64,000 nucleotides of DNA from assembly GCA_046563655.1 (NCBI GenBank), contig CM102287.1, positions 62,001-126,000 of the forward strand, in the 5' to 3' direction. Shown piece by piece: positions 25,240 through 62,251 of this stretch. The DNA is from Yuukianura sp. NJ FZ-2021 (Eukaryota). The notes beneath the pieces were generated by a model, which saw only the letters and a list, made by a program, of their open reading frames with translations, searched no databases and was not told where the DNA came from. A program made the position numbers and the translations under genes. Each line of letters opens with the position of its first letter. Position 1 is the stretch's first letter.

Positions 25240-25385
25240 AATACAATACATAATACAATACATAATACAATACATTATACAATACATAATACAATACATT
25301 ATACAATACATAATACAATACATAATACAATACATAATACAATACATAATACAATACATAATACAATACATAATACAATACAATT
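25240..25385. repeat. 12-bp minisatellite (AATACAATACAT)n, ~12 copies
   Basis: Read directly. Confidence 0.95.
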
Positions 25386-25435
25386 ACATGAATAAGCAGC
25401 TAAACGAAGGAATTAGTTTTTACAAAGCCCAGTAT

Positions 25436-44451: not shown

Positions 44452-47400
44452 CTAATTATTTTTCAAATCATAATCAACTATAGTGTCAATACGCTTGTCT
44501 CCAAAGGGAAGGGAAATTGTGTTTGACACAAAAAATCTTGATGCGTTGATGCTGGAGGTGAGGGATGAGCGGTTACTTGTGACAACTAACATTTGGTCTT
44601 GTAAAATTTTCACCGTAGAAATTTTTACTTTCTTCAAAGCCTCTCCATGCTCAACTACGCGCTTAAAATCAGCGTGCCTCAGATCCTTGGCCTCTGTTTT
44701 CGGAATTCCGCCCGCTTTCAGAATGTTGGATTGTCCATGTGCTGAATCAATTTCCATGGAATATTGGGAACAGGAAGTAGAGTAAAATTCTTTGATTCCT
44801 TCAGCTTGAATCTTCAAGAGTCCAGGTATTCCTGCCCGAGAAGCATCATAGAGTTCGGATGACGGCAGTAGATTAGAAAAGTCGAAGCGATTCGAAAGTC
44901 GTTTCAGACCAGCCACGTATTCGGCTCTGCTGCAGTGGATTTCAGCAACTATGCTGTCAGTATGAGTCATCACATGATGGCACCTGTCCCCAAACTCACG
45001 TTTTAGTCCGTCATAGTAGTGTGAGTAGAGCATAATTTTTGCATTTGAAAGTATTGCAAGTCCAATCATGCGCAGATTGTAATCGGTGATTTCTCCTTTT
45101 GAAAAGTCAAAAAGCGCAGTGTCTTCGTCCAAAATCTCGAACGACTTGAAAGTTGCTTTCGCAAGTTCTGCTTTCGCTTCCACCGAAGATCTGATGGTCT
45201 TTGAACGTACGTAATCTGCATTGTTTTTCAGCATCTGCCCATAAAGCGAGTTGTTTAAAAGCTTCCGAAGTTGTTTTTGAAGAGGAAACTTTGCTTGGTT
45301 TCTTGCTATAACATTGCTAGCTGCAAAATTTGCAAAAATCGGAGACTCCCGAAATCGAACTACTGAATAGTACTTTGTTTTACTTTTGTACTTTTGCGCC
45401 ATGGTCAATCATGAATTTGAGGTACTTTCCGTAGTAGACTTGTCGTATTTTTTTGTAGAGAGTCAGAAGCACTCGCTCTTGTTCAATGTTTGTTTTTTCT
45501 CCCAAACTCTCCCGCTGGAATGGAGAAAGCTCTTGAGCAGAAACCTTGAGTCTCTGTTGCGGGAAGGGAAAGTCTGAAAGGAACTCTTTCACTGCTTCAC
45601 TTTGATATTCAAGGTCGACTTCAAAGAGGTAACCCCAGCCTTCGTCAAAATCTGGTTTGTTGAAATCAAACTTCATGATCTCTTCTGCTCTCAATTTTTT
45701 GTTGTCTCCGCACGGTAAATTACCCAAGAAGCACTTGCTGTAGCAGGAGTTAATGCCCGCATATAAAATTATTTTTTGTGGAAGGGTATGGTCATAGTTG
45801 GACAGCTCCTCATTGTTGGCAATAGACTTCAACTTTGTAACTTGAATCACAGGGCCAATAATTCCTCGTGTAATTAGTTTTGAAATTTCTTCGTCCGTGA
45901 CGGCTTGAATTACACACTTTTCCATTAGGAATGCGGCTTCTCTTGAAAATGAAGAAATGCTCCAAAAGGAAGCCAGATCCAAATGAAACTCTTTCCAATA
46001 TTCGTTTCGAATCGCTACGAAAACGTCTGCCGTTAGAGCAGCGACACTGTTAAGTTTGTGCCGAACTATGGCTTCCAAGGAGAGTTGTTTCCAAGAGTCA
46101 GGAAGTTGGAATTTACTCGAACCTTCTAGACTCACGAACGGCACGGATTGGTTTTCGAAAAAATTATCAACCGATGAAAATTCGGGGAGAATGTCGTCTG
46201 CGGCACTTAGTGTAGCGTCGGGAGAAAGTTGTTGGCCAAAAATTTGTTGAAAGATTGGGAATCCAATGCCTGACATCTTCAGCTCCTGTACAAGTTCTGA
46301 GAGATTAGAGTCTGGACGAAAATTTTGAAAATCCACAAATTTGACCCCAAAGTAAAGGTCATACTTTTGTTTACAAATGGTTTTTCTCAAGTCCATGCCT
46401 ATTGTATTGCCTTCCTTTCTACGAATTGGCGTGGCAATTCCATGTTCATCTTTTACGCATTTTAGCAAAAGATTAAACTCATTCTTTTCACAAAATGCAA
46501 TCGCTGTAATACGGTTCTTTGGTTTGATTTCCAAGTTGCAGTTTGTGCAACAGGTTTGCATCTTCTCTCCTGTGAAATGGTTATGGTGGTAAGCTTTAAG
46601 CACGGAATCGTCGTTAAATTGCTTTCCACAAATTTCGCAATGTGTGGCTTGTAGAAAAAGCCTTTCCTGTTCTTCTGTCATCGGAAGCATCTTGTTTGTA
46701 AATTTAATTTCGTCTAGCTTCATCTTGGCCATTTCCATTGCAGTTTTAAAGAAAATATCCACACAATCTCTTCCAATGTAAGAGTGGCGGTCTACGTGGC
46801 CTGTTTCACATACACTCAGTAGACTGAATCCAACTGGAACCTTTTCTGTAACACTGATACATTCTTGTCCAATGGTCATCGGAGTTTGTACAGAAATGTA
46901 GAAAAATTTGTAGAAAAAAATGTAAGGAGCTTTTAGGAGGGCATCAAACTTTCGAAATTTCACAATGTCATTCGTAGGAGCTTTTACTTTTACAGAGTTT
47001 TCACCACACGTATGGTTTAAGGAAGACCAAGTCCTAGAATCAAAACGTTTTTGACAAACGGGACAAAACTGATGCCTGAAATGACCATGCTTTCCGAGTG
47101 CCGAAATGTCCCGAATGCAAACATAGTGATGTTCTTCTCGTTCTGGGTGCTTGATAAGGAGGAGATTGACGTGATATGCCCTCTCAGTTTGAGGTGCCCT
47201 CCATAGAACAATTTCAGATCCCTGGTTTCCGTACACGGTTATGCTGAGGTCTGAGAATTTCTCTTCTACCAAGTCAATGTCCAAAAGAGAAACGTCAGGG
47301 CGAGGGAGAAAGCTCAAATCCATTCTCTCCAAGAAAGGTTCATAGCTTGCCGTTTTCTCCAAAATTGCTCTCTCAACTTTTGACTTTTGGTGATCCTTGA

Positions 47401-48316
47401 GCCCAAGGCAGTGACGCTTCATTGTTCCCAACTCCAAAATTTCATCTTCGTATAGTGCACATAGTACGCTCAATTGAAAGCAGTTGGAATTGGTATTTAT
47501 CGACAGCAGTCCGCGCCTGCGAGCCAATTCCTTTGGAATCGGAATGTAGCCCCGCCCCCGAACAACTGGATTCCACTGACCAATACCAATGTGGAGAGAA
47601 CGTAGCCGCAGAATCTGCCAATTGCTTCCGTTTTCTAGGTATAAGTTGAGGGCGTTGATGATGTATACACAAGAGTTTGTAACCACCCTTGAAATGAAGT
47701 CTGGATGAGAGAGGGGCATGAAGGGTGCTCCGATGGCGTCTCCGAGGTGAATGACATTGTGTGTGACCTCAATCATGTCAGCAATTAAAGTAAAGTTGAC
47801 TTTGACTCCGCTGAACTGCCCAATCACTGACTTCAGCAGCTTCCTGATGGGAAAGTCGAGGTTTTCAAAAACCGAGAGTACTTGACATTCGGTGGGTGGC
47901 TCAACGGGTGCAGAAAACAACTTCAGAGTCCCCTTCAGAGCATGCCGGATTTCTTTAAAAGGACGAATGTCCACCGTAGCGAGGTCATTGTTCGCTGTAC
48001 GGCCCATGCCTCTCTGAGGACAGGTTGGACGGTGAAGACTAGCCTCATCAAAGTACCCTCCACAAGAATTACAGCTATGTACCTGCATCAAAAGTGAAAC
48101 TTTCACATCTTTCCGCATGCCAGTACTAAGAGTAATGTCTTACAGTCTCCACATGGATGGCCATGGCCTTGTAGGTCGTGCATTTGAAAGTGCAGTGCAA
48201 CGTAGCACTTTGATAACCGCAACTAAACTACAAATAAAATTTTTTGTGAAACAACAATACTAAGATGACTTAGAATTTTTTTTTACCTCAGCTGCCCGTT
48301 TATTTGGAAAACTCAT
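44452..48316 (-). CDS. Divergent, catalytically degenerate pPolB-like protein; introns 48228-48286 and 48083-48143; one frameshift near 45385
   Basis: Collinear with Polinton pPolB (NGSNW, YIPIP, NCF..SVL, GIIG, GYLFEVDLEY, KLLNNSLYG, KAGGI, SLPFGD), but motif A reads YAGINSCY and motif C reads MTHTDS. Confidence 0.85.
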
Positions 48317-49209: not shown

Positions 49210-50086
49210 TGAAACTTGACCCTTCTGGGTCCCTGGGACTCATATGACCTCAAAATGAACCAATGCCGCAGTTTTACTCTCTACCTTGCCTTCTACCTAG
49301 GTGGGGCCGGTCCCACCGGACCCACCTTAAATGACGCTTGAAAAATGAATGTCTAACTAACCGTCAAACCAATATAAGAAGGGAAGATTCCCTTACCTCT
49401 GTCAGCTACAGTCGGATCGGTGAAAGTGGCAGTGGCAGATGCGTGAGCTGTGGAGATGAAGCCGTGGAGATGCGTTTAGCTGTGAGACGTGGAGTTGAAG
49501 AATGACGAAAGATCTTCCCAAGAACAGTGTTTATTTGCAAAAGACTTAGTGTTTCGACCTTAGACCTTAAGTTGGAGAGAGAGAGTACTTGGCCAGAAGC
49601 TAATCTAGAAATGACTTAACGCTAACAAGTTGTTACTTATATTTATAACCTTACTCTTGACCCAGCTTGTCCTTCAACTGAGGGACGCTTAGCGACCTGA
49701 GTTCAAAGTTGGACGTTAATGACCAGGATCTATGATCCTGTTCTGTCATTAAAGTCCAAGATTGAACTAAGTTGTGGGACTATGCAAGTTGATTATCTGG
49801 GCACTTTGTATGAATGTCAACTTTTGATGAGTTGACATTCACATGTCTAACAAGTGTAAAACTTGTTAAACAAGCAACTTTGTTGCTTGCCCTCCCACTG
49901 ATCCGTCATGTCAAAGATCAATTGTCGTAAATCTTTGACATTTGATCCTCTTGAGAAAGAGGAAAAGAAGCTGAGTCTTTGCTTTCCTACTTGTTCTATT
50001 AAAACTAATGTTTATTTTACAATCGTCCGGTTTCGGCCCACCGGGAGATTTTAAAATCTCCGGGTGGCTCGAAATCCGGCGTTACA
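49210..50086 (-). repeat. 3' LTR (start exact, end approximate)
   Basis: Begins TGTAAC right after the PPT; TATAAATATAA at 49647-49637, TCATT initiator ~49614, AATAAA at 49535-49530. Candidate end ...GTTTCA at 49210 (alternative 49092). Confidence 0.7.
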
Positions 50087-50100
50087 TTATTCCCCAACTT
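50087..50100 (-). promoter_or_regulatory. Polypurine tract
   Basis: AAGTTGGGGAATAA abutting TGTAAC. Confidence 0.75.
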
Positions 50101-50307: not shown

Positions 50308-51735
50308 TTAAAAGAAGTTAAAAATGTCGTCAGGGTATGGCTTGTTCGGCTGACCATGGGGGTTTGTGTTGTTGGTGGCTGGCCAGCGGGGTTGATTGTC
50401 CGAGAGTCGTTGGACTGTTTCCTGGAGACCTTTGACCTGGGTTTGAAGTGTTTGGACCTGATGTTCCAGTGCAGAGATGCGAGCTCGGGAATCATCCTGG
50501 GTCCTCTGATAAGGGGTGACATGGTTCCGATTTCTTTCTCGGTATTGAGAATGTCCTGGCCAGCGATGTCCCTGGTGGTTACTGGGCTTCCTCGACATCA
50601 GTTCATTGTGTTCTGATTCTGCTTCCTTGCTGAGTTCCTCTAATGATGTCCATGTAATGATTGATTGGGCAGACAGATTGGCGTAAATGGGTTCCCCTGG
50701 CCGACGTGACAGATCGTGATCCAACATGCGGGTTACTGTTTCCATTATTTTTGCTTTGTCAAATTTGGCTCCGGGCGGTATTACAAGTTCATCCACCTTC
50801 CACTGAAACTGTTTACGTAATTTGTCATTGTTCTCGAGGCCACAATTTTCATAGAATTCCTCAAAGTTCCGCAGCGAGAGGTCGAACTGTTGTGCTAGGA
50901 AGTTGATGACTTCATAAAGCAATTCTTCATGTTGGGAACGGATAGTGATGTGTTGCCGGAATTTCGGAGTTGGAATTGGCAGTACCAACGTTTCGTTAGC
51001 GTCCTGAATCAGCTTTCGCAAAATTACTCCGCGAGTAGCCTGGAAGTTTGCTCGGATCTCGCTGGCAACTCCGTTCCATAACTGCATAATGGCAACAACG
51101 TGGTCCTGAAGATTCTTGACATGCGCATGTTCGGTGGGATGATAGCATGCGGAGTTCGGCAACTCGTAGTTGAATGTTTTTCGCAATCTTGTGGCAATGA
51201 ATTTTTGGCAAAGTCCCGAGAAGGTATCCTCAGTCGTGACGCCTGTACGAAAGAGTTTTGCTAAATCCAGAAAGCCAACGGGAAAAATATTCAAGTCTCT
51301 TCTCAGCATGATGGATTGTGATGCGCAGTCGTAGGCCACCTTTGGAATGGTTGGGCTCTCGAGCAATGTTCGAAGCACGAGGATGGATTTGTCGGTTAGA
51401 TGTCGCACGTTGAGAACAAAGCCGGTGATGCATGTTAGAATGAGTATAGTCACGGTTTCTCCCAAATACGTATTCGGATTTTCTCGGCAGCTCACAAAAA
51501 CGAGGTCCTGGGACATGGCTTGACGAATCAACCAAGCGGCTGCTCCATCGTCACTGACAGTGGTGTGTCTCCAGCCAGATTCTTTTTCCGGAGCTCGGAA
51601 CTGAAGTAGTCTCTGTGTCAGCTTTCCCTCATTTACTGCAGCAAGGCGTTCTGCATGGTCGCTCTTTTCGGGAAAATTTTCGGTGACATTCAAGGCTTGT
51701 CGTTTTTCGTAATAGATACTGCTGGATGTCGCCAT
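50308..51735 (-). CDS. DEDDy/RNase D-like 3'-5' exonuclease-fold protein, apparently inactive, with C-terminal coiled coil
   Basis: LRTLLESPTIPKVAYDC....MLRRDLNI..VGFLDLAKL...SGLCQKF....L.K matches the WRN/EXD/Mut-7/Egalitarian family; ExoI region reads VFVSCRE. Confidence 0.75.
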   Translation of the reverse strand: MATSSSIYYEKRQALNVTENFPEKSDHAERLAAVNEGKLTQRLLQFRAPEKESGWRHTTVSDDGAAAWLIRQAMSQDLVFVSCRENPNTYLGETVTILILTCITGFVLNVRHLTDKSILVLRTLLESPTIPKVAYDCASQSIMLRRDLNIFPVGFLDLAKLFRTGVTTEDTFSGLCQKFIATRLRKTFNYELPNSACYHPTEHAHVKNLQDHVVAIMQLWNGVASEIRANFQATRGVILRKLIQDANETLVLPIPTPKFRQHITIRSQHEELLYEVINFLAQQFDLSLRNFEEFYENCGLENNDKLRKQFQWKVDELVIPPGAKFDKAKIMETVTRMLDHDLSRRPGEPIYANLSAQSIITWTSLEELSKEAESEHNELMSRKPSNHQGHRWPGHSQYRERNRNHVTPYQRTQDDSRARISALEHQVQTLQTQVKGLQETVQRLSDNQPRWPATNNTNPHGQPNKPYPDDIFNFF

Positions 51736-51882
51736 TTTTCTTATGGTGAAAATAAATGAGTCAATCAAAAATTAAACATTAATAGTTTTCATTTTAACCC
51801 CATTCTAAAATTACTGACTACCTATGAATCTATGATTAGTCCCTTTTTAATATACATTATAGTTTTCTGGGAAAGAAAGTTA

Positions 51883-52794
51883 TTAATAATCTACCCATCC
51901 TTCACGGTCCTCAGGAGCCGAATCTGCCAGTTTAATAACTCTTTTTATAAGTTCTTTGGGAACTTTTTCTTTAGGAATTCTGCTCAATTGTCCTAATAGA
52001 AAGGCGAAGCCTTTTCGCGGAAAGAACCCATTTAAATCCACGCAAATATTTCCAGGGTACATGTCGGAAAAGTACGGTGGACAATATTGAAACCTTGTTC
52101 CTACGCGCCGTATATCTTCAACATCGAGTTGAATGAAGAAAGAAGCTTTTATCGCGACTTGAATGGGTCTTGTACTCCCGCAATCACTGATCTCTTCTAA
52201 AAGGTCATGAAGGTCTTTCTTAGGACCTGGATTTGCCCACATTTCTAACTTTTGAAATCCGATTCGATCTCGAACCTCCTTTGAAGAAGGGATGATTCGG
52301 ATAAAGCGACTTAAGTCGTCCCGATTCCCTAACATGTTACTAAGACCCTCATTTGCTTGATAGTTAATATGCCATTTGTCATCGTCCTCAGCGTGGTAGT
52401 AAAACCCTAAGGGTTTGTCCTTGATCTCCGGTTTGTAGAATTTTTCACACGTGACCTGCGCAATTGCATCACCTTTTCTTAGGTGGAAAGATTTCCTGCC
52501 ATGATTAAAAATCGTCATTTTGCAAATGCCTGATATTGTACCCCCTTCCATGACCTCTGGGGCAACGGTTATTCCATGGCTAAGCGTATGTCTGTAAATA
52601 GAAGTTATTCTTCCGAAAAGTCCTAACGGAATACGCAAGGCGATTCCGGTGGAAACAACACAACGGTCTCCTGGCGAAATGTCATAATCCGCGGAAGTGT
52701 AAATAGTAAGGCCAGCCTCATGGGCTTCTCCCCAGTGAGGTGCCTTGGCGTCTGGAGAGTGTAAAGTGAACTCTATGGGCTCAAAGTAAGCCAT
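51883..52794 (-). CDS. Degenerate trimeric dUTPase domain fused to an unknown ~180-aa domain
   Basis: DAKAP.....AGL.IY.......PGDRCVVSTGIALRIP.G.FGRI...FNHG...F.L.KGD.IAQ; catalytic motifs altered. Confidence 0.85.
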   Translation of the reverse strand: MAYFEPIEFTLHSPDAKAPHWGEAHEAGLTIYTSADYDISPGDRCVVSTGIALRIPLGLFGRITSIYRHTLSHGITVAPEVMEGGTISGICKMTIFNHGRKSFHLRKGDAIAQVTCEKFYKPEIKDKPLGFYYHAEDDDKWHINYQANEGLSNMLGNRDDLSRFIRIIPSSKEVRDRIGFQKLEMWANPGPKKDLHDLLEEISDCGSTRPIQVAIKASFFIQLDVEDIRRVGTRFQYCPPYFSDMYPGNICVDLNGFFPRKGFAFLLGQLSRIPKEKVPKELIKRVIKLADSAPEDREGWVDY

Positions 52795-52826
52795 TTTGAA
52801 AGGAAAATGAAATGAACGAAATGAAA

Positions 52827-53630
52827 CTAGTTTTCCTTATCTGACTCCAAGTAGTCGTCACAAGTCTCGGCGTAAGCGTCGCCTGCGATACAAATTTCGT
52901 CGATGAGCTGGTCGTCTGTACTCAACCCTCTGCGTTCCTGAGTCTCCTTTGTCTTCTCTCGGCGTTGGACTTGGCGTTCGGACAGTGTGCTCCAGTAGAT
53001 GATTTTCTCTGTTTCGTAAAGACTGAAGAAGTACTTTACTTCTTCCCTCCGTCCTCCGTTGCAGTGAAGGATGTCGGCCAAGTCTCGGAAGCAGTATGGT
53101 CGGTAGGGTCGTCGAGTTACAGCTAATATCAGACTGTCGGTCCGGAAATCGGTTAGTGGAGCTCCTGGCTGACGAGTGATGTGTATGGTGGTGAAGTGAG
53201 TTAGTTCTAGCTTTTCCTGTAAGCCAAGTCGCAGGAACTCATCTGTCTTGATCCCAAGATCAAGTATTCCTTCACAGTGTCGGACGAATGACACGAGAGT
53301 TAGCGGGAATCGATCGATTCTAATCTGGGCGAATCTGTAGATTAGCTCGTGTCTGCAGTGAGTCAGCTGGTACCTATAAGTAGAGCGTGGATCTTCCCAA
53401 ATCCAGATTTCTAGCTTGTTGATCAGTGGTTTCCAGGCGAGTTTAGTAGTCTTGACTAAACTGTCTATCAGTTCCTTTAGTTCGGGAAAACAGTCTTTGA
53501 GGAGACTCAGCTCGATTACACTCCTCGAGGCGAGAAATCTCGCTCTCTCGTACCGCTGATTTGGTTGGTTTCTTTCTCGAACTGCGTCTATGAATCCAGC
53601 TGGCAGGTTGTGAAGTCCGTTCACTGACAT
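52827..53630 (-). CDS. Retroelement accessory ORF, unknown function
   Basis: 267-aa intact ORF, co-oriented, preceded by a TTTTCAG acceptor. Confidence 0.75.
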   Translation of the reverse strand: MSVNGLHNLPAGFIDAVRERNQPNQRYERARFLASRSVIELSLLKDCFPELKELIDSLVKTTKLAWKPLINKLEIWIWEDPRSTYRYQLTHCRHELIYRFAQIRIDRFPLTLVSFVRHCEGILDLGIKTDEFLRLGLQEKLELTHFTTIHITRQPGAPLTDFRTDSLILAVTRRPYRPYCFRDLADILHCNGGRREEVKYFFSLYETEKIIYWSTLSERQVQRREKTKETQERRGLSTDDQLIDEICIAGDAYAETCDDYLESDKEN

Positions 53631-53769
53631 GAGTTTTTAGAATTCTGAATTCTGAAAATGACGTGTTTTTAGTCTATTGTTTTACAAAGTTCTATTTATT
53701 TTACTATTCTAGCCTGCTACTCCTGAGTACTATCTACTAATCTTCAAAATAGATGCCCTGCCTGTATGC

Positions 53770-54428: not shown

Positions 54429-56585
54429 TTACAATTCCTCCTGTTCTTCCGAAGCGCTGTCACTGTCGGAAGTAACTCTTTCCTCTTCTTCCTCCTGAAT
54501 GGTGTCCATCGTCTGGACGACCTGGATTTTGAGTGGTGAATGGAATGAGGTTCGTCCTCCTTTCTCAAATTTGTCGAGGTCAGTTCCATCTGCCCTGATC
54601 TCACCGCTTGGCCAATTTCTGCCGCTCTTGCGTCGCATATAGATCGCGTATGCGTATCCAAACATAAAAAATACCACGAAGACCAAAATTAGTAGTAGAG
54701 TGATTCCTAAGTTCCAGGCATGGTGTTCGTGGACTTCGGCAGTTGCTTGGGCCTGGCCGAACTGTCCTCCTAACATAGGAAAACCTAGCATGTAACCTCC
54801 ATGCCGGCTGATTTCACGATAGAAGAGAAAAGCTAACACTAGGCTCATCAGAACGTTCCATATTATTAGTGCAGTGTTGCTTGATGGGGCCATTTTGGCT
54901 ACCAATTGGGGAACAATCAGTGTCTTTAGCTGCGTGACCTCCGTGAGGTTTAGTTTTGGAGAGTCTAACTCCCATGTCTCGTTGAAGACGGACTCGATGC
55001 TAGGAAAAATGGTGGATTCCTTTGAGTCTCGAGATTCTGTTGCCTTTAGTAATAAATCGACCTTTGACATCATCGCTGGTATGACTATATTAACCTTAGG
55101 GTAGGTGATAGGTCCTGTTGGACAAGGATAAGGTGGTCGGACTGGCATTCTTCCTGGGATGACTAGTTGACAATCGCATGGCAACTGTACTTCGATACTT
55201 CCGATACCGTCAGCGGGGACCCTCAATGGATAGATTCGGTCGGCATCTTCTGTTCCACAATGCACGGCCATCCCTTCGGGAGCACCGGTCAGAATGAATG
55301 TATGGTAATCCAACTGTGTTATCGCGAATTCGTTTTGATCTGAGAGACACTCGAACAGACAGACCTGGTTGAGCTCTTGAACGCTAGCTCCTCGCAATAA
55401 CCTTTGTGCGCAAAGGTACCCGGATAACGGATCGGAGTTGAAGTTCGGGATTTTACAGAGTCCTGTGTCCGGTTGACATTGGTGGAGTTGGGTTCCTTGG
55501 ATTGTTACCAGATTATTCTTACTTGTAGCCAGGTAAGTTGGAGCGTGTTGGATGATACATGTGCTTCCCCGGTAGCTGAAGGGAATATTGACCATCTCAT
55601 GTAGTTGCCAATCATCTTCAGTTTTTCTGATTGGAATGCGTAGTTGGAAGATAATTCTCCCTTCAGTAGTTGTGACGCAATCTGCGATCTTCAGCTTGTA
55701 GTATTTCGAGATTTCGGTCTCTGGAACGACAAGGTCGTAACCATCCTTGTTGATGAGCCTCCTGATACTTCTCAAGTCTCTTTGCAGCTTCTTGGGTTGG
55801 ATTGCTAACAAAGGGATTGTCTGGGACCTACAGTGGTCTTGGAGATCTTTGAATCGGATGATCTCGGTGATGGCGTTGATGTGGTTGTAGATTTGAACAA
55901 ATCCTCTTCGTTGGAAGTCCAATTCTTCGAATGCTTCTTCAACGCGTTGTTCCAGCTGCGTTTCAAGAACAGTGACGTTCAGCTGCTCGGCGTACAACGT
56001 ATGGATGTTGTCATGAATACGATTCATGAACCTGGAGATGTTACTTCGAAACAACTCGAAACTATCTTTTACTGTGATTATGTTTTGGTCTGAAGTGACC
56101 ACAGCTCTCTTGATGGATTCCATGAATTGTTGTACCTTCTGAGAATCGACTTGATATTCCTTCAGATCTCGTTTAGAAGCTACGCCACAGCATATGGAGT
56201 AAAGGTCACCAATCCATGTCAACGGGTTGTAGTCGTCTATGCTGAAACGTTTCTGCCGGGTCGTGGTTTTGGATGGACTCATCATTAAGTCCTCGATTAT
56301 CTTTTGCATCACATCGGTGACATGTTCAACATAAGGTCGCATCGCGAGCGGAAACACGCAGTTTTGTCCTGATTGGCAACGTTTGGGGGTTAGGATGCCC
56401 TTTGGTAATTCCGAGAAGTTTGCCATGACATCATAGATCAAGGGGACGCTTGATGAGTACAACTCTACGTTCTTGACCTCTCGGATTAAGGCTCCAGTGG
56501 TCACTCGTACTTGTTTTGGTATTATTTCGTATGCAGCGACAGGGGTGAGTAGAAGAAGAGTTATTGAGGCGTAGATCGCCGCCAT
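54429..56585 (-). CDS. env: Envelope glycoprotein, baculovirus F / errantivirus-like class I fusion protein
   Basis: Signal peptide, furin site RQKR followed by FSID..PLTWIG.L...C.GVA, heptad region, Cys-rich ectodomain, C-terminal TM segments. Confidence 0.85.
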   Translation of the reverse strand: MAAIYASITLLLLTPVAAYEIIPKQVRVTTGALIREVKNVELYSSSVPLIYDVMANFSELPKGILTPKRCQSGQNCVFPLAMRPYVEHVTDVMQKIIEDLMMSPSKTTTRQKRFSIDDYNPLTWIGDLYSICCGVASKRDLKEYQVDSQKVQQFMESIKRAVVTSDQNIITVKDSFELFRSNISRFMNRIHDNIHTLYAEQLNVTVLETQLEQRVEEAFEELDFQRRGFVQIYNHINAITEIIRFKDLQDHCRSQTIPLLAIQPKKLQRDLRSIRRLINKDGYDLVVPETEISKYYKLKIADCVTTTEGRIIFQLRIPIRKTEDDWQLHEMVNIPFSYRGSTCIIQHAPTYLATSKNNLVTIQGTQLHQCQPDTGLCKIPNFNSDPLSGYLCAQRLLRGASVQELNQVCLFECLSDQNEFAITQLDYHTFILTGAPEGMAVHCGTEDADRIYPLRVPADGIGSIEVQLPCDCQLVIPGRMPVRPPYPCPTGPITYPKVNIVIPAMMSKVDLLLKATESRDSKESTIFPSIESVFNETWELDSPKLNLTEVTQLKTLIVPQLVAKMAPSSNTALIIWNVLMSLVLAFLFYREISRHGGYMLGFPMLGGQFGQAQATAEVHEHHAWNLGITLLLILVFVVFFMFGYAYAIYMRRKSGRNWPSGEIRADGTDLDKFEKGGRTSFHSPLKIQVVQTMDTIQEEEEERVTSDSDSASEEQEEL

Positions 56586-56708
56586 TTTTCTTTTCTAGGG
56601 GAATGAAAAGTTCCTAAATATTCTGAAGCTGTCCTACCACTTAACTACCTTAACTACCTAATTTCCCGCCTCCGTAATTCTATATGAGTAGTTAATTAGT
56701 GGTGCGTT

Positions 56709-59700
56709 TTATGACAAGAACCTCGCAGGTTTCCTGACGACTCTTCCTGAGCGAGTTACTATCTCGGGTTCTTTTGCCTTTTCGTCGGCCACGTTGGCCT
56801 TACTAATTTCTTCATCTTCTGAGGAAATGTCCTCATCTGTTGATACTTGACCTACGTCACTGTCGACTTCGGCGTCGACCTCGGCGTTATCGTTGACGGG
56901 TTCCCTAATCTCTCTATCCGCGACCGGAAGGTCAAAAAAAATTTCGGGTGTGGGCTTATCGTGTCCTTCCCCAACTTGATCTGCTGCTACTCCCGAAGCA
57001 GCCGTCGTTACGTACGACATGTCGGATTCATGAAACGCTTTCATGTTTTCAATGTGGACTCGAGTGAGCTTAGAGTCGGGATCTGCGTCCCGCAACCGAC
57101 AATAATAAGAGAGAGAGGACTTCCTCCCAATCACGATGTAGGGGCCTTTAAACCGCATGGCGAGTTTGCGGCTTATCCCTGGTTTTGTCTTATGTACTTT
57201 AAGGAGTACTAGGTCACCGACCTTAAATTCGAAGGGTTGGCGACCCGGGTCGAACAACCTCGCCTGCCTTGCCTGGGCTTTCCGAAGTCCAGCTTGTGCA
57301 GCTTTCCGTGCTGCTTCCATGCGTTGGATACGCGTCGGAATTTCAACGGCGTCCTTGACGGTGTCCAAAGCGACGTCCATAGGATGTAGTGGATTCCGTC
57401 CATGGAGAATGTAGTAACTGCTAAGTCCTGAGCTGTCCTTATGGACGGCTGTATTTAGGCTGTAAACAGCAGACCCTAAATATTTGTCCCAATCACGCTG
57501 GGTGCTGGAGACATAATTAGTAAGTACCTCCTCGAGGCTTCGGTTAGTTCGCTCGACTAAACCGTTGGTCCTGCTGTGATACGGAGTAGAGTACAGATTG
57601 GTGATACCGATCAATTTGTTAAACTCTTTAAAGAATGAGGATTGAAAAGTACTAGCATTGTCAGAAAGAAGAGTTTTGAAAACTCCGTGGGTTTGAATTA
57701 TCTCAGTCAGAAATGAGATCATCTCTTTGGTGGTATTTTCGGGTATTGCTTTAGCAAAAATGTATCTCGATACGAATTCAACTAGGACAACAATATAGCG
57801 ATTCCCTCGCTTGGTTCTGTTTAGCGGGCCTATGACATCAATACTGCACTTGTCAAACAGAGCAAGAGAGCTGATGTCAATCGGCGTCAAGAGTCCGTAA
57901 GGCTTCACATTTTTAGACTTTCTTAGTTGACACGTCGGACAATGTCTAATGTATGACGTTACACGTTTTTCCATTTTGAAAAAGAAAATACTTTGTCGAA
58001 TTCTGGCGATAGTCCTGGCGATACCAAGGTGTCCAGCCAAGGTATCATCATGGAAACGTGGAATGGCACAGTCTACCAAGTGAGCTGGTATGACTGGCAA
58101 ATATTGTTTCGTCTGTTTGCAAATGGATTTTAAAAGATCCTCGGAATAGTCAAAAGATGTACAGTATTTAGTTTTCCCTGCTTGGAGAGATTGAATGATA
58201 GTCTCTAATTTCCTGTCTTTCATTTGCTCCTGAGCCAGATTCTCCGTATAGTCTACTGGAGTTACTAACTGCATACTATACCATGTAGTTGGAAAATCAT
58301 CGATAAATTTCTTTTCACCTTCTGATTCGGATATAGGAAATCTGCTTAAGCAGTCTGCCTGGACATGGCTTTTACCATTGATGTGTTTAATTTCATAAAC
58401 GACATCCTGAAGTCGCAAGGCCCAACGAGCAAGACGACTGTTTCTAAGATTTTTACATGTTTTTAAATAGCATAGGGCATGATGATCTACGACAATAGTA
58501 ATGCCCTTGAAACCAATAAATTCTCTAAACTTGTCCAGACCCCAAACAACAGCTAGAGCCTCCTGCTCGCTAGTGTTGTAGCGTTCCTCGGCGCCACGAT
58601 ACGTTCGACTGGCGTAAGCTACTACCCGCAGGACGCCATCTGGGTCCCGTTGGTTGAGTACTGCTCCTATACCCTTGTTAGAAGCATCAGTATGAAGTTC
58701 TAAGTCTGCATTCTCGTTGAAGAACGTAAGAATTGGAGCTGAAGTTAGTTTTTCTCGTAGCGTGTCAAATGCTTGTTGTTGTTCTAAATCCCATTTGAAA
58801 GCTGCATTCTTCTTGGTTAAAGAAGTCAGTGGAGCTGCTATAAGACTGTAGTTCAAAATGAATCTCCTATAGTATCCTGCCATTCCTAAGAAAGTTCGGA
58901 TCTCCCCGATGTTGGTAGGAGGAGGCATCTTGGAAATGGCACTAACTTTATTTGGATTAACTGAAACTCCTTCCCCTGAAATGATGTGACCTAGGAGTTC
59001 AATTTTAGTCTGTCCGAAATGACATTTTGGTGGTTGGAGAGTCAAATTATATGTACGAAATTGTTCAAAAACTTTTCTCAGATTGCTCAAATGACTCGGA
59101 AAGTCTTTACTGTAACAACATACATCGTCTAGGTATGCAGTGGCAATGGAATGCAGCAGATTACCCAGTACTGTTTTGAGAAAGGCAGAAAATGCTGCTG
59201 GGGCGTTTGTTAGGCCGAAACCTACAAAGAGATATTCATACGCTCCTGTGTGTGTTACAAAGCTGGTTTTCTCAACGTCATCAGGATGGATGGGTAATTG
59301 AAAGTAACCTGACATCAAATCCATCACGCTAAAATATTTGGCTCCATTGAAAGATGCTAAGAGCTCACTGATGATGGCCATTGGCCATACAACAGTTTTC
59401 GTTAAGAAATTTAGGCGTCTCCAATCAACGCACATTCTAAACTTGTCACTATTTTGTTTTCGTACTAAAGAGACTCCTGCGGACCAAGGTGATTGACTCT
59501 CCCGAATAATGCCTGCGTTTAACAATGTTTCGACTTCCTTTTCTATAATTTTCTTTTCAACTGGGGATTTCTTGTATGGAGGGCAACTTACAGGAAGTGC
59601 ATCTCCAGTGTCAATCCGGAAACTAACATCCTTAGCTTTCCCTAGCTGGTCCAAATTGAAAGCAAAGACATCTCCGTACTCTAAGATGAGTTCTCTCAAT

Positions 59701-60668
59701 TGTTGTCTCTGCCCAGGATCTAATTCTGGATTGATATCGATGGAGTCTATATTTTCCCGAGTTGATTTAAAACGAGCTGCTCGAATTTCTTCTTCCGGTT
59801 GCGAATCTCTAACTATAACTCGGCTAATCCATCCGACATTTACACCTCTGTAAAGTGTCACAGGAACTGGTCTTGGATTATCGTCTGGAATAAGGAATTC
59901 CCCTTCTGGAATATGGGCTAAATGAGGAATGCAAATGCCTAATTTGTCTAATCCTGTTCCATTAGGTTCAAAAGCTAAAGTTCCACTAATCGTATTGACA
60001 GGAGATACTTTCACCTGAGTGGTGGCGAACGGTGGAAGAACTACCTCTTCCACTGTCAAGACTTTAGGTGTGGATGGATGATTCTTTTTGGACAAATTAC
60101 TTTCTTCCACCCTGACTGAATTCAGAATTGTTTTAGTCCCTGTGGAAGGGAAAACGTTAAGACGTTTAGGGTGACACATTCCCTGAAATTGGAATTCCGC
60201 TAAACCGTTGGGATTAAGCAGCCGATACTGCATTAAATTGGCCGCTTGAAAATCTAACCCAATAATAAAATCCACAAAACTTTTATCTATGACAAAGAAA
60301 TCCCAATCAAAGAATTCGTCCTTGGTGCGGGTGAACTGAACCCTAATTCTGGAAGTGCCTAAAATTTTGACATGGCTGTCATTAGCTAATTTTATTTTGA
60401 AAGGTTGGCTTAATTTGTCAAATGTTTCAGCGTTATGTTTTGTAACGATGCTAACAGAAGCTCCGTTGTCAATTAAACAAGTTTTTCGAAAAAGTGTGCC
60501 AGATTCGTTAATAAAAATTGGGGTAATGAAATTTCCTCGGAGTTTGGAATCATTAACATCGAGTTGCATGGAATTGATAGTTGGTTCATTTAACGTTTCA
60601 TTTTGGTAAAAAGGGGGACATGAAAGAATGACGTCAGCTCCCCCTACTGACGTGCAGTGGAGTTTTCC
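56709..60668 (-). CDS. pol: Pol polyprotein (PR, RT, RNase H, integrase), entered by -1 frameshift
   Basis: LIDNGASVS, FRMCVDWRRLN, DLMSGYFQ, FGLTNAP, YLDD, TDAS, H..GHLG..CPTC, DVIGP/SDNA/GLVER, GPY. Confidence 0.97.
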   Translation of the reverse strand, partial: GKLHCTSVGGADVILSCPPFYQNETLNEPTINSMQLDVNDSKLRGNFITPIFINESGTLFRKTCLIDNGASVSIVTKHNAETFDKLSQPFKIKLANDSHVKILGTSRIRVQFTRTKDEFFDWDFFVIDKSFVDFIIGLDFQAANLMQYRLLNPNGLAEFQFQGMCHPKRLNVFPSTGTKTILNSVRVEESNLSKKNHPSTPKVLTVEEVVLPPFATTQVKVSPVNTISGTLAFEPNGTGLDKLGICIPHLAHIPEGEFLIPDDNPRPVPVTLYRGVNVGWISRVIVRDSQPEEEIRAARFKSTRENIDSIDINPELDPGQRQQLRELILEYGDVFAFNLDQLGKAKDVSFRIDTGDALPVSCPPYKKSPVEKKIIEKEVETLLNAGIIRESQSPWSAGVSLVRKQNSDKFRMCVDWRRLNFLTKTVVWPMAIISELLASFNGAKYFSVMDLMSGYFQLPIHPDDVEKTSFVTHTGAYEYLFVGFGLTNAPAAFSAFLKTVLGNLLHSIATAYLDDVCCYSKDFPSHLSNLRKVFEQFRTYNLTLQPPKCHFGQTKIELLGHIISGEGVSVNPNKVSAISKMPPPTNIGEIRTFLGMAGYYRRFILNYSLIAAPLTSLTKKNAAFKWDLEQQQAFDTLREKLTSAPILTFFNENADLELHTDASNKGIGAVLNQRDPDGVLRVVAYASRTYRGAEERYNTSEQEALAVVWGLDKFREFIGFKGITIVVDHHALCYLKTCKNLRNSRLARWALRLQDVVYEIKHINGKSHVQADCLSRFPISESEGEKKFIDDFPTTWYSMQLVTPVDYTENLAQEQMKDRKLETIIQSLQAGKTKYCTSFDYSEDLLKSICKQTKQYLPVIPAHLVDCAIPRFHDDTLAGHLGIARTIARIRQSIFFFKMEKRVTSYIRHCPTCQLRKSKNVKPYGLLTPIDISSLALFDKCSIDVIGPLNRTKRGNRYIVVLVEFVSRYIFAKAIPENTTKEMISFLTEIIQTHGVFKTLLSDNASTFQSSFFKEFNKLIGITNLYSTPYHSRTNGLVERTNRSLEEVLTNYVSSTQRDWDKYLGSAVYSLNTAVHKDSSGLSSYYILHGRNPLHPMDVALDTVKDAVEIPTRIQRMEAARKAAQAGLRKAQARQARLFDPGRQPFEFKVGDLVLLKVHKTKPGISRKLAMRFKGPYIVIGRKSSLSYYCRLRDADPDSKLTRVHIENMKAFHESDMSYVTTAASGVAADQVGEGHDKPTPEIFFDLPVADREIREPVNDNAEVDAEVDSDVGQVSTDEDISSEDEEISKANVADEKAKEPEIVTRSGRVVRKPARFLS

Positions 60669-62161
60669 GGAACAGTAGGCGGAGTAGCGTTTGCCGATGG
60701 TCGTTTGTTGTGTTTTGGACAGTCAACTCGGCGGTGATTCTCTCCACATGTCCAGCATTCTATGGGAGTACCGTCAACAAGATGAGTTTTTCTATCAGCT
60801 TCACGGGGTCGCCCTGATCCACGACCACCGCGGTTGTTCCAACGTCCTCGGGATGAACCTTGTGTATTCCGAGAACCACTACCCCGGTTACCGTTGGAAT
60901 CGTCCCTCTTGGACCCCCCTCCACCACGGGAGTATCCATGTCCGGCTTTACCGTATCCACGGTTGTTTCCCCTGTTCCAGCTACCGCGGTAACCCCCACG
61001 AGGACGTGAGTCCTTTCCGCTGGTATTGGAATCTTCTTGACCTTCCTCAATCCCCATAGCGTTGAACCTAGCTACCATCCTTTTCTGGCTACTAGAATCT
61101 TTCTTTCTGTCCATCATAAATTCGTAGTCTTCTTTTTGGATCAAGAAATCAATAACATCTTTAGGAGTCTTAGGCTGTCGGAGAAAGACCTCATGACTTT
61201 CCTCCTGACCAAGACCCTTCAACAAGTATTTTACCCGTTTTTCGTCCTTCATGACGGTTCCCTGACTTTTGTCTAACTGATCGCACAACCGCATAATGTT
61301 ACTACAGTACTCCTCGATACGGACGTTCTTTCCACGCCGCATTTGAGCAAGTTTATGCTCAAGGGCGTCTTCGGTAAGCCTGGACTTGAAGTCCAACTTA
61401 AAAGCTGCCTCAATTTTAGGCCACGACAAAGGCAACACTTCGCCATCGTCATCAATGTTGGCTGGATCCCTTTTCCAGTCTGTACAGTAGTTCAGCCACC
61501 AAGTCTTAGCGTACTTGGTGAGATAGAGAGGAAAATGGGTGACCTTCGCAGCGTCATCCCAGTGTTGCGTAGCAGCAACTGCTTTGAAAGTTTGCATGAA
61601 ATTCGTGGCTTGGGTTCCACGTTTCCCTTCGAAGATGGGATCACCAGGCGGGTTCCACACCGAAACAAACACGTTCCCGGTTCCACCTGGTGCCACTAAT
61701 GCCACAGGACCAGGGGTACTCCCACCCGGAGCCCCTGCACCAGTATTATTTGGATCACTCATGTCGCCTTGGATAGTGCCGGATAAATCAAGACTTAAGT
61801 CCCTACGGAGACTACCTCTTTCCTGAGTAGGATTTGGAATAAGAATAGGACGATCTGACCTGTCAGCCTTCGCGGCCTTAGCTGTGTGCTGGCTTTTCCT
61901 TGCCACACGCTCGTCCTTCACTATGATCGTTGGGTTGGATGGAGGTTGGACAACCACTACCTCTGGTATGGCCCTGATCTCTGGATTCGTTGGAGTGGTG
62001 CTGGACCCTGCTTGCGTACCTGAAGCAATTTCCTCCTCTCGATTCTTAGGCGACTTCGACTTGGACCGATTGTCCTTTAACACCGAATCCAATGCAGTGA
62101 ATGAAAATTGTGGTGTTCCTCGATCCCTCTTTTTCCCCGATCCGGAATCACCAGTACTCAT
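60644..62161 (-). CDS. gag: Gag with capsid domain, RG-rich region and CCHC knuckle
   Basis: FEG....ATNF...F...A....W......F..YL...A..WW, CWTCGENHRRVDC; first ATG at 62161. Confidence 0.93.
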   Translation of the reverse strand: MSTGDSGSGKKRDRGTPQFSFTALDSVLKDNRSKSKSPKNREEEIASGTQAGSSTTPTNPEIRAIPEVVVVQPPSNPTIIVKDERVARKSQHTAKAAKADRSDRPILIPNPTQERGSLRRDLSLDLSGTIQGDMSDPNNTGAGAPGGSTPGPVALVAPGGTGNVFVSVWNPPGDPIFEGKRGTQATNFMQTFKAVAATQHWDDAAKVTHFPLYLTKYAKTWWLNYCTDWKRDPANIDDDGEVLPLSWPKIEAAFKLDFKSRLTEDALEHKLAQMRRGKNVRIEEYCSNIMRLCDQLDKSQGTVMKDEKRVKYLLKGLGQEESHEVFLRQPKTPKDVIDFLIQKEDYEFMMDRKKDSSSQKRMVARFNAMGIEEGQEDSNTSGKDSRPRGGYRGSWNRGNNRGYGKAGHGYSRGGGGSKRDDSNGNRGSGSRNTQGSSRGRWNNRGGRGSGRPREADRKTHLVDGTPIECWTCGENHRRVDCPKHNKRPSANATPPTVPENSTARQ

Positions 62162-62251
62162 ACCCTTTTGAAACGGGCGTAATACCTTAAGCAAATCATA
62201 TACATACAACTTTAAGTATAGATCCAAAACCAGAAAATAAATTCTTGGATT

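Follow-up and report, generated by a model that had tools for sequence, protein, structure and literature searches.

An Rrp6-type exonuclease domain, stripped of its catalytic residues and followed by a coiled coil, in the last gene of an endogenous retrovirus-like element of Yuukianura sp.

Introduction

The gene content of retroelements is usually taken to be gag, pol and sometimes env only. What purpose might be served by an additional gene at the far end of such an element, one whose product has the fold of a 3′-5′ exonuclease and seems to be without the residues that would let it cut? The question is raised by a stretch of 64,000 nucleotides from Yuukianura sp. NJ FZ-2021 (GenBank assembly GCA_046563655.1, contig CM102287.1, positions 62,001 to 126,000 of the forward strand), here called the window, along which all positions below are counted. 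A first description made from the letters alone, the sequence-only reading, had placed there a pseudo-exonuclease of DEDDy fold as the final gene ahead of the polypurine tract (PPT) and proposed it as a silencing antagonist or RNA adaptor.

The last gene of a retrovirus-like element

The coordinates first given for the gene, 50308..51735, are right, and the strand is the minus strand, as it is for every feature described here. The ORF is intact, with 475 codons that begin at an ATG in an AAAATGG context and end in a stop at 50308-50310, and at the local composition the probability that a frame of this length stays open by chance is P ~7e-13. Its place as the last gene before the PPT likewise holds. 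The stop at 50308 is followed by a purine-rich, polypurine-like tract (50087..50100) directly upstream of a 3′ LTR (49540..50086), whose start, the TG at 50086-50085, is firm and whose lower end is approximate. Contigs from public runs diverge exactly at 50086, with loose ends in runs X1 and X4, and a break at this base matches the expectation for an LTR edge.

Read from its 5′ side, the element comprises gag (Retrotrans_gag / Ty3 capsid; 60644..62251), a Ty3/gypsy-type pol with RT, RNase H and integrase (56709..60722), an env-like ORF (54429..56594), ORF-X (52827..53636), a dUTPase-like ORF (51883..52836) and the pseudo-exonuclease, and then the PPT and LTR. In the env-like ORF, which matched no Pfam family, a signal peptide is combined with an RQKR site and with hydrophobic segments at the C-terminal end. 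ORF-X, an accessory ORF with no Pfam match, is the first gene of a conserved three-gene module and shares 26% identity with positions 41-910 of a distantly related locus, L001 (E 5e-16). The upstream neighbour of the pseudo-exonuclease is the dUTPase-like ORF, which stands alone and carries a C-terminal extension (PF00692, 1.3e-12); it also appears degenerate. A pair of LTRs was sought inside the 64-kb window and none was found, the 5′ LTR being either beyond base 64000 or absent. The element is an endogenous, retrovirus-like one of Ty3/gypsy type that bears an env, and the pseudo-exonuclease ORF is its 3′-most accessory gene.

Ancestry of the exonuclease-like domain

Taken alone, the protein falls short of recognition: it scores 14.8 bits (E 0.025) against PF01612, under the Pfam gathering threshold of 23.6 bits, and its best Rrp6 match in a phmmer search of the PDB has an E-value of 0.09. 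Its relatives are more telling. An exhaustive phmmer search of 1.84 billion representatives returned three matches at E<=1e-3, namely P0005 (1.9e-12), P0006 (4.1e-6) and P0007 (5.6e-4), the last a typical intact Rrp6-like exonuclease (PF01612 at 3.3e-27, plus HRDC); P0005 itself lies above the PF01612 cut-off (32.9 bits, E 7e-8). A family profile built from three sequences, the window protein, P0005 and P0006, matched 20 PDB sequences at E<=1, 13 of which are Rrp6/EXOSC10 (1.2e-7 to 2.5e-6), with T. brucei RNase D (7e-5), Egl (3e-3) and EXD1 (0.2) next and with WRN, EXD2 and Nibbler absent at that threshold. Comparison by hhalign with an Rrp6/RNase D alignment gave a probability of 95.8% (E 8e-9) over columns 55-233. 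Because P0005, the family profile and hhalign are each significant, homology to the PF01612 superfamily is supported transitively.

Two structure models lead to the same fold, the RNase H-like alpha/beta fold of the exonuclease superfamily. The first, from a four-row alignment, is confident only over residues 57-160 (pLDDT ~70-80), and Foldseek ranks Rrp6, EXD2, Egl, Nibbler, RNase D, EXD1 and WRN at its top, with Rrp6 best (E 5.4e-8). The second, from an 87-row alignment, reaches a pLDDT of 75.9 overall and more than 90 within the core of the exonuclease; VIA matches it to human RRP6 (3saf_A) with Z 21.0 and an rmsd of 2.5 over 213 residues, followed by E. coli RNase D (Z 20.5), EXD1 (5fiq_A; 18.5), WRN (17.2) and Egl (17.1). 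As 78 of those 87 rows are bacterial RNase D, the fold of the second model is partly imposed, and the evidence independent of the RNase D-rich alignment consists of the first model and the sequence statistics only. An Atlas feature search with residues 40-240 found PF01612 clusters in 26 of 30 matches, which serves as a lead only, and with the whole protein it gave no usable match.

Judged by these profiles and models, residues ~57-235 (51031..51567) descend from the DEDDy 3′-5′ exonuclease domain of an Rrp6/EXOSC10-type RNase D, with the predicted fold kept. The fold named in the sequence-only reading is thereby borne out through relatives, family profile, hhalign and both models. Its placement among RNase D, WRN and EXD proteins stands as to fold and has to be amended as to kinship, the nearest by sequence being Rrp6/EXOSC10 and not EXD1, WRN or Egl.

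An active site taken apart

The catalytic columns are defined by the 83 typical sequences of the 87-row MAFFT alignment, which there carry D (83/83), E (83/83), D (82/83, with one E), Y (83/83) and D (83/83). At the same five columns S, a gap, Q, N and H are found in the window protein. In the ExoI remnant VFVSCRE (residues 79-85; 51481..51501) Ser82 occupies the Asp position and the Glu column holds a gap, Arg84 being the residue at i+2, so that no D-x-E is present; across the three family members this triplet is S-C-R, S-C-Y and S-C-F. Glu85 is displaced by one residue from the ExoI Glu position. In the ExoII remnant YDCASQS (residues 135-141; 51313..51333) the Asp has become Gln140, and Gln is found in all three members. 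Serine, gap and glutamine are thus identical at the ExoI and ExoII columns of the window protein, P0005 and P0006.

The ExoIII region (residues 198-212; 51100..51144) aligns ambiguously, and its candidates differ by alignment: N208/H212 by MAFFT with 87 rows and by hhalign, and H199/H203 by HMMER against human EXOSC10. The path through P0005, which has F-x3-D, leads to Y198-x3-E202, a conservative version of Y-x3-D. Y-x3-D itself is given by none of the alignments. In view of the Y198-x3-E202 path and of Glu85 near the ExoI Glu, some residual metal binding may be possible.

The first description had quoted VFVSCRE and YDCASQS, both of which are present, as sites where the acidic residues look replaced, and against the 83 typical rows this is confirmed for ExoI and ExoII. 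The structure prediction and active-site alignment that it had called for return a DEDD fold whose acidic tetrad is not intact. From the alignments we infer that the protein is a pseudo-enzyme that has lost two-metal exonucleolysis.

Flanking regions and a predicted dimer

P0005 and P0006 conserve the N-terminal extension (residues 1-56; 51568..51735), which aligns in T. brucei RRP6 to the stretch ahead of the EXO domain (family profile 31-193 against 4nlb 40-212). The exonuclease-like domain carries a net charge of +1 over residues 57-235 and is not notably basic. Behind it comes a helical middle region (residues 236-380; 50596..51030), for which no family was detected. The motifs LP.P.P and LAQ/R..D of this region are kept in P0005 and in a further related locus, L002, and the second model places a helical bundle there (pLDDT 62-74). 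Searched as residues 236-400, this part of the protein found nothing better in the PDB by phmmer than an unrelated kinase (E 0.78), and in Pfam only HGAL at E 0.021, under its cut-off. A basic, His-rich linker (residues 381-407; 50515..50595), with 6 K/R, 1 D/E and 4 H, leads to the coiled coil (residues 408-446; 50398..50514), and the protein ends in a Pro/Asn-rich tail (residues 447-475; 50311..50397) closed by the acidic-aromatic motif DDIFNFF.

Within the coiled coil, residues 420-444 (ISALEHQVQTLQTQVKGLQETVQRL) form four perfect heptads, with I420, L423, V427, L430, V434, L437, V441 and L444 at the a/d positions. This is the very string on which a coiled coil behind the exonuclease domain had first been proposed, and modelling turns it into a parallel dimer. 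When residues 396-456 were modelled as a pair, complex prediction gave a score of 0.35, the best of three controls reaching 0.00. A mark of 0.32 was reached by 21 of 30 one-chain pairs solved as such and by none of 23 solved single chains; among eukaryotes the same mark was reached by 17 of 29 pairs and none of 30 single chains. At 0.35 the dimer exceeds the mark of 0.32 only slightly. Between runs at least 89% of the contacts coincide, the partner has a pLDDT of at least 67, and the contacts are in register (430-430, 423-423, 437-437). Since short zippers resemble many solved structures, the pass may reflect the memory of the model. The coiled coil is kept in L002 and missing from P0005, and dimerization through it is therefore not universal in the family.

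Relatives and persistence of the gene

How old is this gene, and has it been maintained? The succession of ORF-X, dUTPase gene and pseudo-exonuclease gene recurs in L001, where all three are open and 26-28% identical to their counterparts; the dUTPase-like ORF of the window is 28% identical to L001:911-1981, and the homologue of the pseudo-exonuclease is open over 341 codons. That so distant a relative keeps the three-gene order argues that the gene is old and maintained. Across the three family members, themselves 26-28% identical, about 29 positions are invariant, and the residues conserved in the family include S82, Q140, R146, D147 and D157, which sit in the old active-site motifs. In a FastTree phylogeny of 86 rows the three pseudo-exonucleases form one split (support 0.985) adjoining P0007 (support 0.911).

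Not every copy is maintained, as L002 has four in-frame stops in its ExoIII region. The other ORFs of L002 contain no retroelement domain except a dUTPase, and neither a PPT nor the start of an LTR can be recognised downstream of its pseudo-exonuclease copy. Over residues 28-283, contigs that match the window at 92-96% identity show no gaps. Among the ORF variants listed from public contigs, V237V, L242L, I243F and R382T, two of the four are synonymous; with at least four variants in the ORF, beside 1032 further variant places across 8 kb, the number is too small for a selection test.

Wider searches kept the family small. A word-indexed protein search returned nothing with the single protein, only P0006 with the family alignment and five proteins with P0007. 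A scan of viral contigs matched 80 pattern stretches, none of which encodes a relative. Among the best 50 matches in the BFVD viral fold library, about a third of which are nameless, those with names are all generic phage PolA or giant-virus DEDD exonucleases and none is from a named retro-transcribing virus.

What the protein may do

The reading we favour, with a probability of roughly 0.45, is that the gene encodes a dimeric, non-catalytic RNA-binding accessory protein of the element. With the fold kept, the catalytic residues lost and a pairing helix gained, the protein probably binds RNA rather than cuts it. Probably translated from a spliced subgenomic message, as retroviral 3′ accessory proteins are, with a candidate acceptor at the pyrimidine tract and AG finishing 4 nt upstream of the ATG (about 51740, minus strand), it would be made a parallel dimer by its coiled coil and would hold RNA in the old substrate cleft together with the basic linker. 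Its ligand would be the RNA of the element itself, bound at the 3′ end or at a structured signal, and the outcome would be stabilisation, routing or packaging of that RNA. An analogy is provided by EXD1, Exuperantia and Egalitarian, in which an exonuclease fold acts as an RNA adaptor.

A different use of the same scaffold is conceivable, at a low though appreciable probability: as a decoy or antagonist, a dead Rrp6 look-alike would compete with the Rrp6/EXOSC10 of the host, or with a further DEDDy enzyme from a small-RNA pathway, for RNA 3′ ends or partner proteins and so shield the transcripts of the element from 3′-5′ decay or silencing. The nearest proteins by sequence and fold are indeed Rrp6/EXOSC10, down to the Rrp6-type segment before the EXO domain, the scaffold is conserved while the catalytic residues are lost, and the carrier is a parasite that host RNA surveillance would presumably target. 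Yet PMC2NT, a detectable HRDC domain and a recognisable exosome-binding tail were all not found, so that the known handles for Rrp6 partners are missing, and in the available text of the bdelloid rotifer work a mut-7-like silencing role is treated as hard to sustain (PMC5408684, PMC6431247). The boldest form of this idea, also unlikely, has a dead copy of the host's own Rrp6, dimerised by its zipper, act as a dominant-negative shield of element transcripts and form a counter-defence module with the dUTPase-like gene and ORF-X; by occupying transcript 3′ ends or sequestering an Rrp6 cofactor it would block exosome-coupled or small-RNA-coupled decay. Somewhat less probable is a part in protein-protein contacts alone, in which the fold, with no RNA role, would be a stable platform that bridges gag, ORF-X, the dUTPase-like protein or host factors in the course of assembly or trafficking. 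That the three genes are conserved as a module points to a joint function, the coiled coil and the Pro/Asn-rich tail with its C-terminal acidic-aromatic motif would suit such a platform, and the dUTPase-like ORF next to it in the window also looks degenerate; however, the family-conserved residues S82, Q140, R146, D147 and D157 lie in the old active-site motifs and not on a new surface.

Might the ORF simply be a decaying relic, a once-active exonuclease of the kind still intact in the bdelloid ORF3s, adrift under neutrality, its frame still open only through the youth of this copy? The four stops in L002, the even split of the four listed variants into two nonsynonymous and two synonymous, and the bdelloid extra ORFs, reported in the available text without clear departure from neutrality (PMC5408684, PMC6431247), would be in keeping with this. 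We nevertheless hold it improbable, given serine, gap and glutamine plus about 29 invariant positions common to three such divergent sequences, an intact, syntenic 341-codon homologue in L001 at 26% identity, 475 codons hardly to be left open by chance, and the lack of gaps over residues 28-283 in the contigs of 92-96% identity. A nuclease of different chemistry, with Ser82, Gln140 and His212 (or the nearby Cys83, His203 and His205) as a new active or metal site of the sort proposed for Maelstrom-type domains, seems a shade more improbable still. The Ser, Cys and Gln do not vary among the three members, His212 is common to the window protein and P0005, and a Cys-His-Cys zinc motif is described for Maelstrom in a DEDD-derived fold (PMC5408684, PMC6431247), but the assignment of the histidine hangs on the ambiguous ExoIII alignment, and Cys83, which follows Ser82 on a strand, should face away from the cleft.

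If the favoured reading of an RNA-binding dimer is true, the gene adds another enzyme turned RNA adaptor to EXD1, Exu and Egl, this time on the side of the parasite. Should the protein protect or route the RNA of the element, it would offer a concrete, clonable handle on how host RNA surveillance is evaded or handled, and if the shield reading is true, it would be a transposon-encoded anti-surveillance pseudo-enzyme.

Comparison with known systems

Retroelements with an intact DEDDy exonuclease gene have been reported once, in bdelloid rotifers, where the LTR retrotransposons Juno and Vesta and the Athena/Terminon elements carry a DEDDy-type ORF3 (PMC5408684, PMC6431247). Both the bdelloid ORF3 and the ORF of the window are RNase D-like, and both are extra ORFs downstream of pol in dUTPase-carrying lineages. 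They differ in what has become of the domain: in the available text the bdelloid ORFs keep their invariant residues intact (DEDD to DEED) and have no coiled-coil or TM domains, whereas the ORF of the window has lost the acidic residues and has a coiled coil. The dUTPase, too, is placed differently, inside pol between PR and RT in bdelloids and as a separate ORF after env in the window. No sequence link to the bdelloid ORFs appeared among the three matches in 1.84 billion representatives, a set that may not include them. A mut-7-like part in silencing is raised for them in the available text only as a possibility, and a decoy role is not discussed there (PMC5408684, PMC6431247). Intact DEDDy ORFs in bdelloid retroelements are thus already known, and the loss of the catalytic residues and the gain of a coiled coil are new here. 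With the window there is a second, independent lineage, and in it the same fold has persisted long after the loss of its catalytic centre, which argues that the useful property is binding and not cutting.

Among host proteins the closest by sequence and fold is Rrp6/EXOSC10, a likeness that extends to the segment before the EXO core. All five DEDDy positions nonetheless differ in the 87-row alignment. PMC2NT (PF08066), which the fungal Rrp6 P0008 possesses, has no match in the window protein even at E<=10, HRDC (PF00570) has no Pfam match in the whole protein or in residues 236-400, and hhalign ends at residue 233. Behind the domain the window protein has a helical region, a basic linker and a coiled coil of its own, and it is the product of a retroelement gene, not of a host gene.

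The sequence-only reading had named EXD1 and Egalitarian as precedents for inactive or non-catalytic domains of this fold. Exu and Exd1 bind RNA through inactive exonuclease-like domains, and EXD1 recruits small RNAs in this manner, according to the available part of a recent report (10.1101/2025.08.03.668247). EXD1 and the window protein have in common a DEDDy fold without catalytic residues (fold Z 18.5) and differ in their flanking domains; with similarity in sequence not significant (profile E 0.2), the two lost their activity independently. Egalitarian is not an inactive domain, as it keeps all five DEDDy residues, on which its role in RNA localisation does not depend, and for RNA it employs additional, positively charged helical elements behind the EXO domain, as far as that part of the report goes (10.1101/2025.08.03.668247). 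It is, moreover, a host protein of 1004 residues with BicD- and Dlc-binding regions, and its catalytic residues are retained, unlike those of the window protein. What the two would share (fold Z 17.1, profile E 3e-3) is a DEDDy fold put to RNA recognition independently of catalysis, as in Egl and as proposed here for the last gene of a retrovirus-like element.

The protein and its element

The 3'-most gene of this Ty3/gypsy-type element encodes a retroelement accessory protein that combines a fold derived from Rrp6 with a zipper and a metal site that has been dismantled. Its minus-strand frame (50308-51735) is intact, with 475 codons and a stop (50308-50310), and the chance of a frame this long remaining open at the local base composition is about 7e-13. 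All strings quoted in the sequence-only reading are found in it, namely VFVSCRE (residues 79-85), YDCASQS (135-141) and the heptad stretch (420-444). The genes before it, all on the minus strand, begin with a matrixin-type ORF (62553-63686) and continue with gag (60644-62251), a pol of Ty3/gypsy type containing RT, RNase H and integrase (56709-60722), an env-like ORF whose product has a signal peptide, an RQKR site and hydrophobic segments near its C-terminus (54429-56594), the unnamed accessory frame ORF-X (52827-53636) and, directly preceding the pseudo-exonuclease, a stand-alone dUTPase-like ORF (51883-52836). About 210 nt past the pseudo-exonuclease stop, on the same strand, a purine-rich tract (50087-50100) leads into TG at 50086. 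Public-run contigs that match the left side diverge exactly at 50086 into varied continuations, the pattern that an outer LTR edge would give; the gene had correctly been called the last one before the PPT. No LTR pair is present within the 64-kb window, so the 5' LTR is either beyond base 64000 or missing. The pseudo-exonuclease ATG has an AAAATGG context 4 nt past a pyrimidine tract and AG, an arrangement that would fit the use of a subgenomic message made by splicing. This tract and AG, located in an AT-rich spacer (51736-51800, minus strand), may act as the splice acceptor of such an mRNA.

Homology and fold

Searched alone, the window protein scores below threshold against PF01612 (E 0.025; 14.8 bits, cut-off 23.6), and phmmer against the PDB places four Rrp6 chains on top at E 0.09-0.31. 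A word-indexed search of 5.8 billion proteins gave no match to it. Exhaustive phmmer over 1.84 billion representatives returned three proteins at E<=1e-3: the relatives P0005 (1.9e-12) and P0006 (4.1e-6), which form a family with the window protein, and P0007 (5.6e-4), a typical exonuclease that carries both PF01612 (3.3e-27) and HRDC. P0005 passes the PF01612 cut-off with 32.9 bits, and P0006 scores 19.3 bits. A profile of the three family members matched 20 PDB sequences at E<=1, comprising 13 Rrp6/EXOSC10 chains (1.2e-7 to 2.5e-6), two T. brucei RNase D chains (7e-5 and 9e-5), two Egalitarian chains (3e-3 and 0.027), two EXD1 chains (both 0.2) and one unrelated chain; E. coli RNase D, WRN, EXD2 and Nibbler are absent at that level. 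Aligned by hhalign with five Rrp6/RNase D proteins, the family reaches 95.8% probability (E 8e-9) over residues 55-233. The identity of the window protein as a pseudo-exonuclease is well supported.

The DEDDy fold proposed from the sequence is borne out by this profile and by two structure models that agree. The first, from a 4-row alignment, is poor overall (pLDDT 46) with residues 57-160 at about 70-80, and Foldseek ranks Rrp6, EXD2, Egl, Nibbler, RNase D, EXD1 and WRN at the top (best E 5.4e-8). The second covers residues 40-350 at pLDDT 75.9, with the exonuclease core above 90, and VIA-align superposes it on human RRP6 with Z 21.0 and an rmsd of 2.5 over 213 residues, followed by E. coli RNase D (Z 20.5), EXD1 (18.5), WRN (17.2) and Egl (17.1). 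Its 87-row alignment holds the query, P0005, P0006, one piece of the metagenome contig L002, proteins P0007-P0011 and 78 of 80 bacterial RNase D loci, the other two being left out for their stops; as RNase D dominates these rows, the model is consistent with the fold and is not independent proof of it. As a lead only, an Atlas feature search with residues 40-240 placed 26 of 30 matches in PF01612 clusters.

P0007, the closest catalytically intact relative, is a 521-aa metagenome protein on a 2188-bp contig. It has an Rrp6/RNase D EXO domain, HRDC, and, within a very basic tail, a C-terminal Cys-x2-Cys...His...Cys knuckle-like motif, recalling the CCHC-type T. brucei RNase D of entry 7c42.

The metal site

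Among the 83 typical rows of the 87-row alignment, the ExoI Asp and Glu are each kept in 83/83, the ExoII Asp in 82/83 (Glu in the remaining one) and the ExoIII Tyr and Asp in 83/83 each. The window protein, P0005 and P0006 alike have Ser at the ExoI Asp, a gap at the ExoI Glu and Gln at the ExoII Asp, an assignment on which MAFFT, HMMER and hhalign concur; the replacement of these acids had been suspected from the sequence and holds. The ExoI i+2 residue in the three proteins is R, Y or F. Glu85 of the window protein lies one residue off the ExoI Glu register, at a position occupied by E, E and Q in the family. Placement of ExoIII varies by alignment: the Tyr and Asp columns hold Asn208 and His212 by MAFFT (87 rows) and hhalign, His199 and His203 by HMMER against human EXOSC10, and Tyr198-x3-Glu202 when the window protein is aligned pairwise through the F-x3-D of P0005 (MAFFT). 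None of these alignments contains a Y-x3-D in the window protein. Because neither acid of ExoI nor the Asp of ExoII remains, two-metal exonucleolysis is very unlikely. Indeed, DEDDy active-site mutants such as D313N of human RRP6 (entry 3SAF) serve as dead enzymes.

Regions outside the core

Conservation within the family extends to residues 1-56, which the profile alignment pairs with the pre-EXO segment of T. brucei RRP6. Residues 236-380, predicted as helical with low to middling confidence and with no sequence match in Pfam or the PDB, are a possible degenerate HRDC. A basic, His-rich stretch (381-407) precedes four perfect a/d heptads at residues 420-444 (I420, L423, V427, L430, V434, L437, V441, L444). 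Modeled in two copies, residues 396-456 score 0.35, with the best of three controls at 0.00, contact agreement of at least 89% and partner pLDDT of at least 67. That mark is reached by 21/30 solved one-chain pairs versus 0/23 solved single chains, and by 17/29 pairs versus 0/30 single chains in a eukaryote benchmark; the pass may reflect model memory, as short zippers resemble many solved structures. The predicted contacts are in register and so indicate a parallel dimer. P0005 ends without a coiled coil.

Copies and maintenance

Both relatives lie on contigs from one metagenome. L001 (3041 bp) carries ORF-X, dUTPase and pseudo-exonuclease in the window's order, all open and at 26%, 28% and 26% identity, respectively, and its dUTPase has a C-terminal extension like that of the window's. 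L002 (9075 bp) has a dUTPase followed by a collinear pseudo-exonuclease copy with four in-frame stops in the ExoIII region, the coiled-coil word being kept past a further stop. Across the three family proteins 29 positions are invariant, including S82, C83, G92, K132, Q140, R146, D147 and D157. FastTree (86 rows, 175 columns), with thin sampling and long branches, unites the three in one split (support 0.985) that joins P0007 (0.911). Identity to the region ranges from 80 to >99% among public contigs drawn from two studies and two organisms (59-311 per run), which shows that there are several diverged copies. Those 92-96% identical over residues 28-283 are gap-free, with indels just downstream of the stop. 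At least four variants fall inside the ORF; the four listed divide into two synonymous and two nonsynonymous.

Neighboring genes and repeats

ORF-X (269 aa) belongs to no Pfam family; its counterpart at L001:41-910 (E 5e-16) likewise adjoins the dUTPase. The window dUTPase-like ORF scores 48 bits over profile positions 3-110 of 129, its L001 homologue 129 bits, and in pairwise alignment it departs from two motif-like stretches kept in L001, the G-x-I-D-x-x-Y-x-G-E-like and C-terminal G-F-G-S-S-G-like ones. Its product may thus also be a pseudo-enzyme, which would be the module's second. In the env-like ORF (721 aa), RQKR is followed by a hydrophobic stretch; the ORF also has many Cys and an acidic tail, and it matches no Pfam family, the paramyxovirus F type included; excerpts of the bdelloid work report an env of that type in TelKA (PMC5408684). 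The matrixin-type ORF, just upstream of gag, has PF00413 at 2e-44, a signal peptide and a weak hemopexin match. Since its C-terminal part (residues 279-333) matches L002:211-375, which lies upstream of the dUTPase on that contig (44% identity, E 3e-10), and no LTR or PBS repeat lies between it and gag, this MMP-like gene may belong to the retroelement lineage.

Elsewhere, a satellite array with strongly positive GC skew fills positions 1-10700 (unit about 508 bp, at least 21 copies, most of them 95-100% identical), and shorter arrays occupy 23816-24508 (111-nt unit), 25202-25417 (12 nt) and 28520-29405 (98 nt). Further mobile-element ORFs include a weak type-B DNA polymerase match of organellar/viral type (20764-23655, minus), a Mutator-like transposase (3e-70) fused to a YqaJ-like recombinase domain (25797-27815, minus), a zf-RVT fragment (31110-31664, plus) and a 919-aa ORF with weak C2H2 and endonuclease VII matches (45380-48139, minus). 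A host-gene fragment, probably one exon, encodes the end of the eIF-3c N-terminal domain (32803-33369, minus; PF05470 at 1.5e-48).

Proposed function

It is plausible that the pseudo-exonuclease binds RNA without cutting, as a dimer, and that it would serve the element's own RNA by stabilizing, routing or packaging it. As precedents, Exd1 and Exuperantia are described, in excerpts of a recent preprint, as binding RNA through inactive exonuclease-like domains (10.1101/2025.08.03.668247).

With the Rrp6-like fold and the altered site in view, the protein could instead be a decoy of host Rrp6 or of small-RNA enzymes, which we regard as unlikely while granting it some weight. The zipper bears on a pure protein scaffold, a somewhat less probable role. 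The open L001 frame and the interrupted L002 copy are to be set beside the idea of a decaying relic, which appears improbable, and the ExoI and ExoII replacements beside that of a nuclease with new chemistry, which is slightly more improbable still.

Comparison with known retroelement exonucleases

Within CC-licensed PMC and bioRxiv full text, among the matches listed, retrotransposon-borne DEDDy exonucleases are the subject of one laboratory only. Further work from the laboratory of the bdelloid study reportedly also concerns them. The same CC-licensed texts yielded no catalytically dismantled, coiled-coil version in an env-carrying element. As described in excerpts of the bdelloid work, RNase D-like ORF3s occur in the Juno and Vesta LTR elements and in Athena/Terminon elements, with their invariant residues intact (DEDD changed to DEED), without a coiled coil or TM segment and with dUTPase inside pol; its authors regard Maelstrom and EXD1 as inactive derivatives (PMC5408684, PMC6431247). 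The window protein falls outside Rrp6, EXD1 and Egl. Set beside the bdelloid ORF3s by their descriptions, it lacks the catalytic acids and has a coiled coil, and the dUTPase, located inside pol in the bdelloid elements, is in contrast a stand-alone ORF in the window element.
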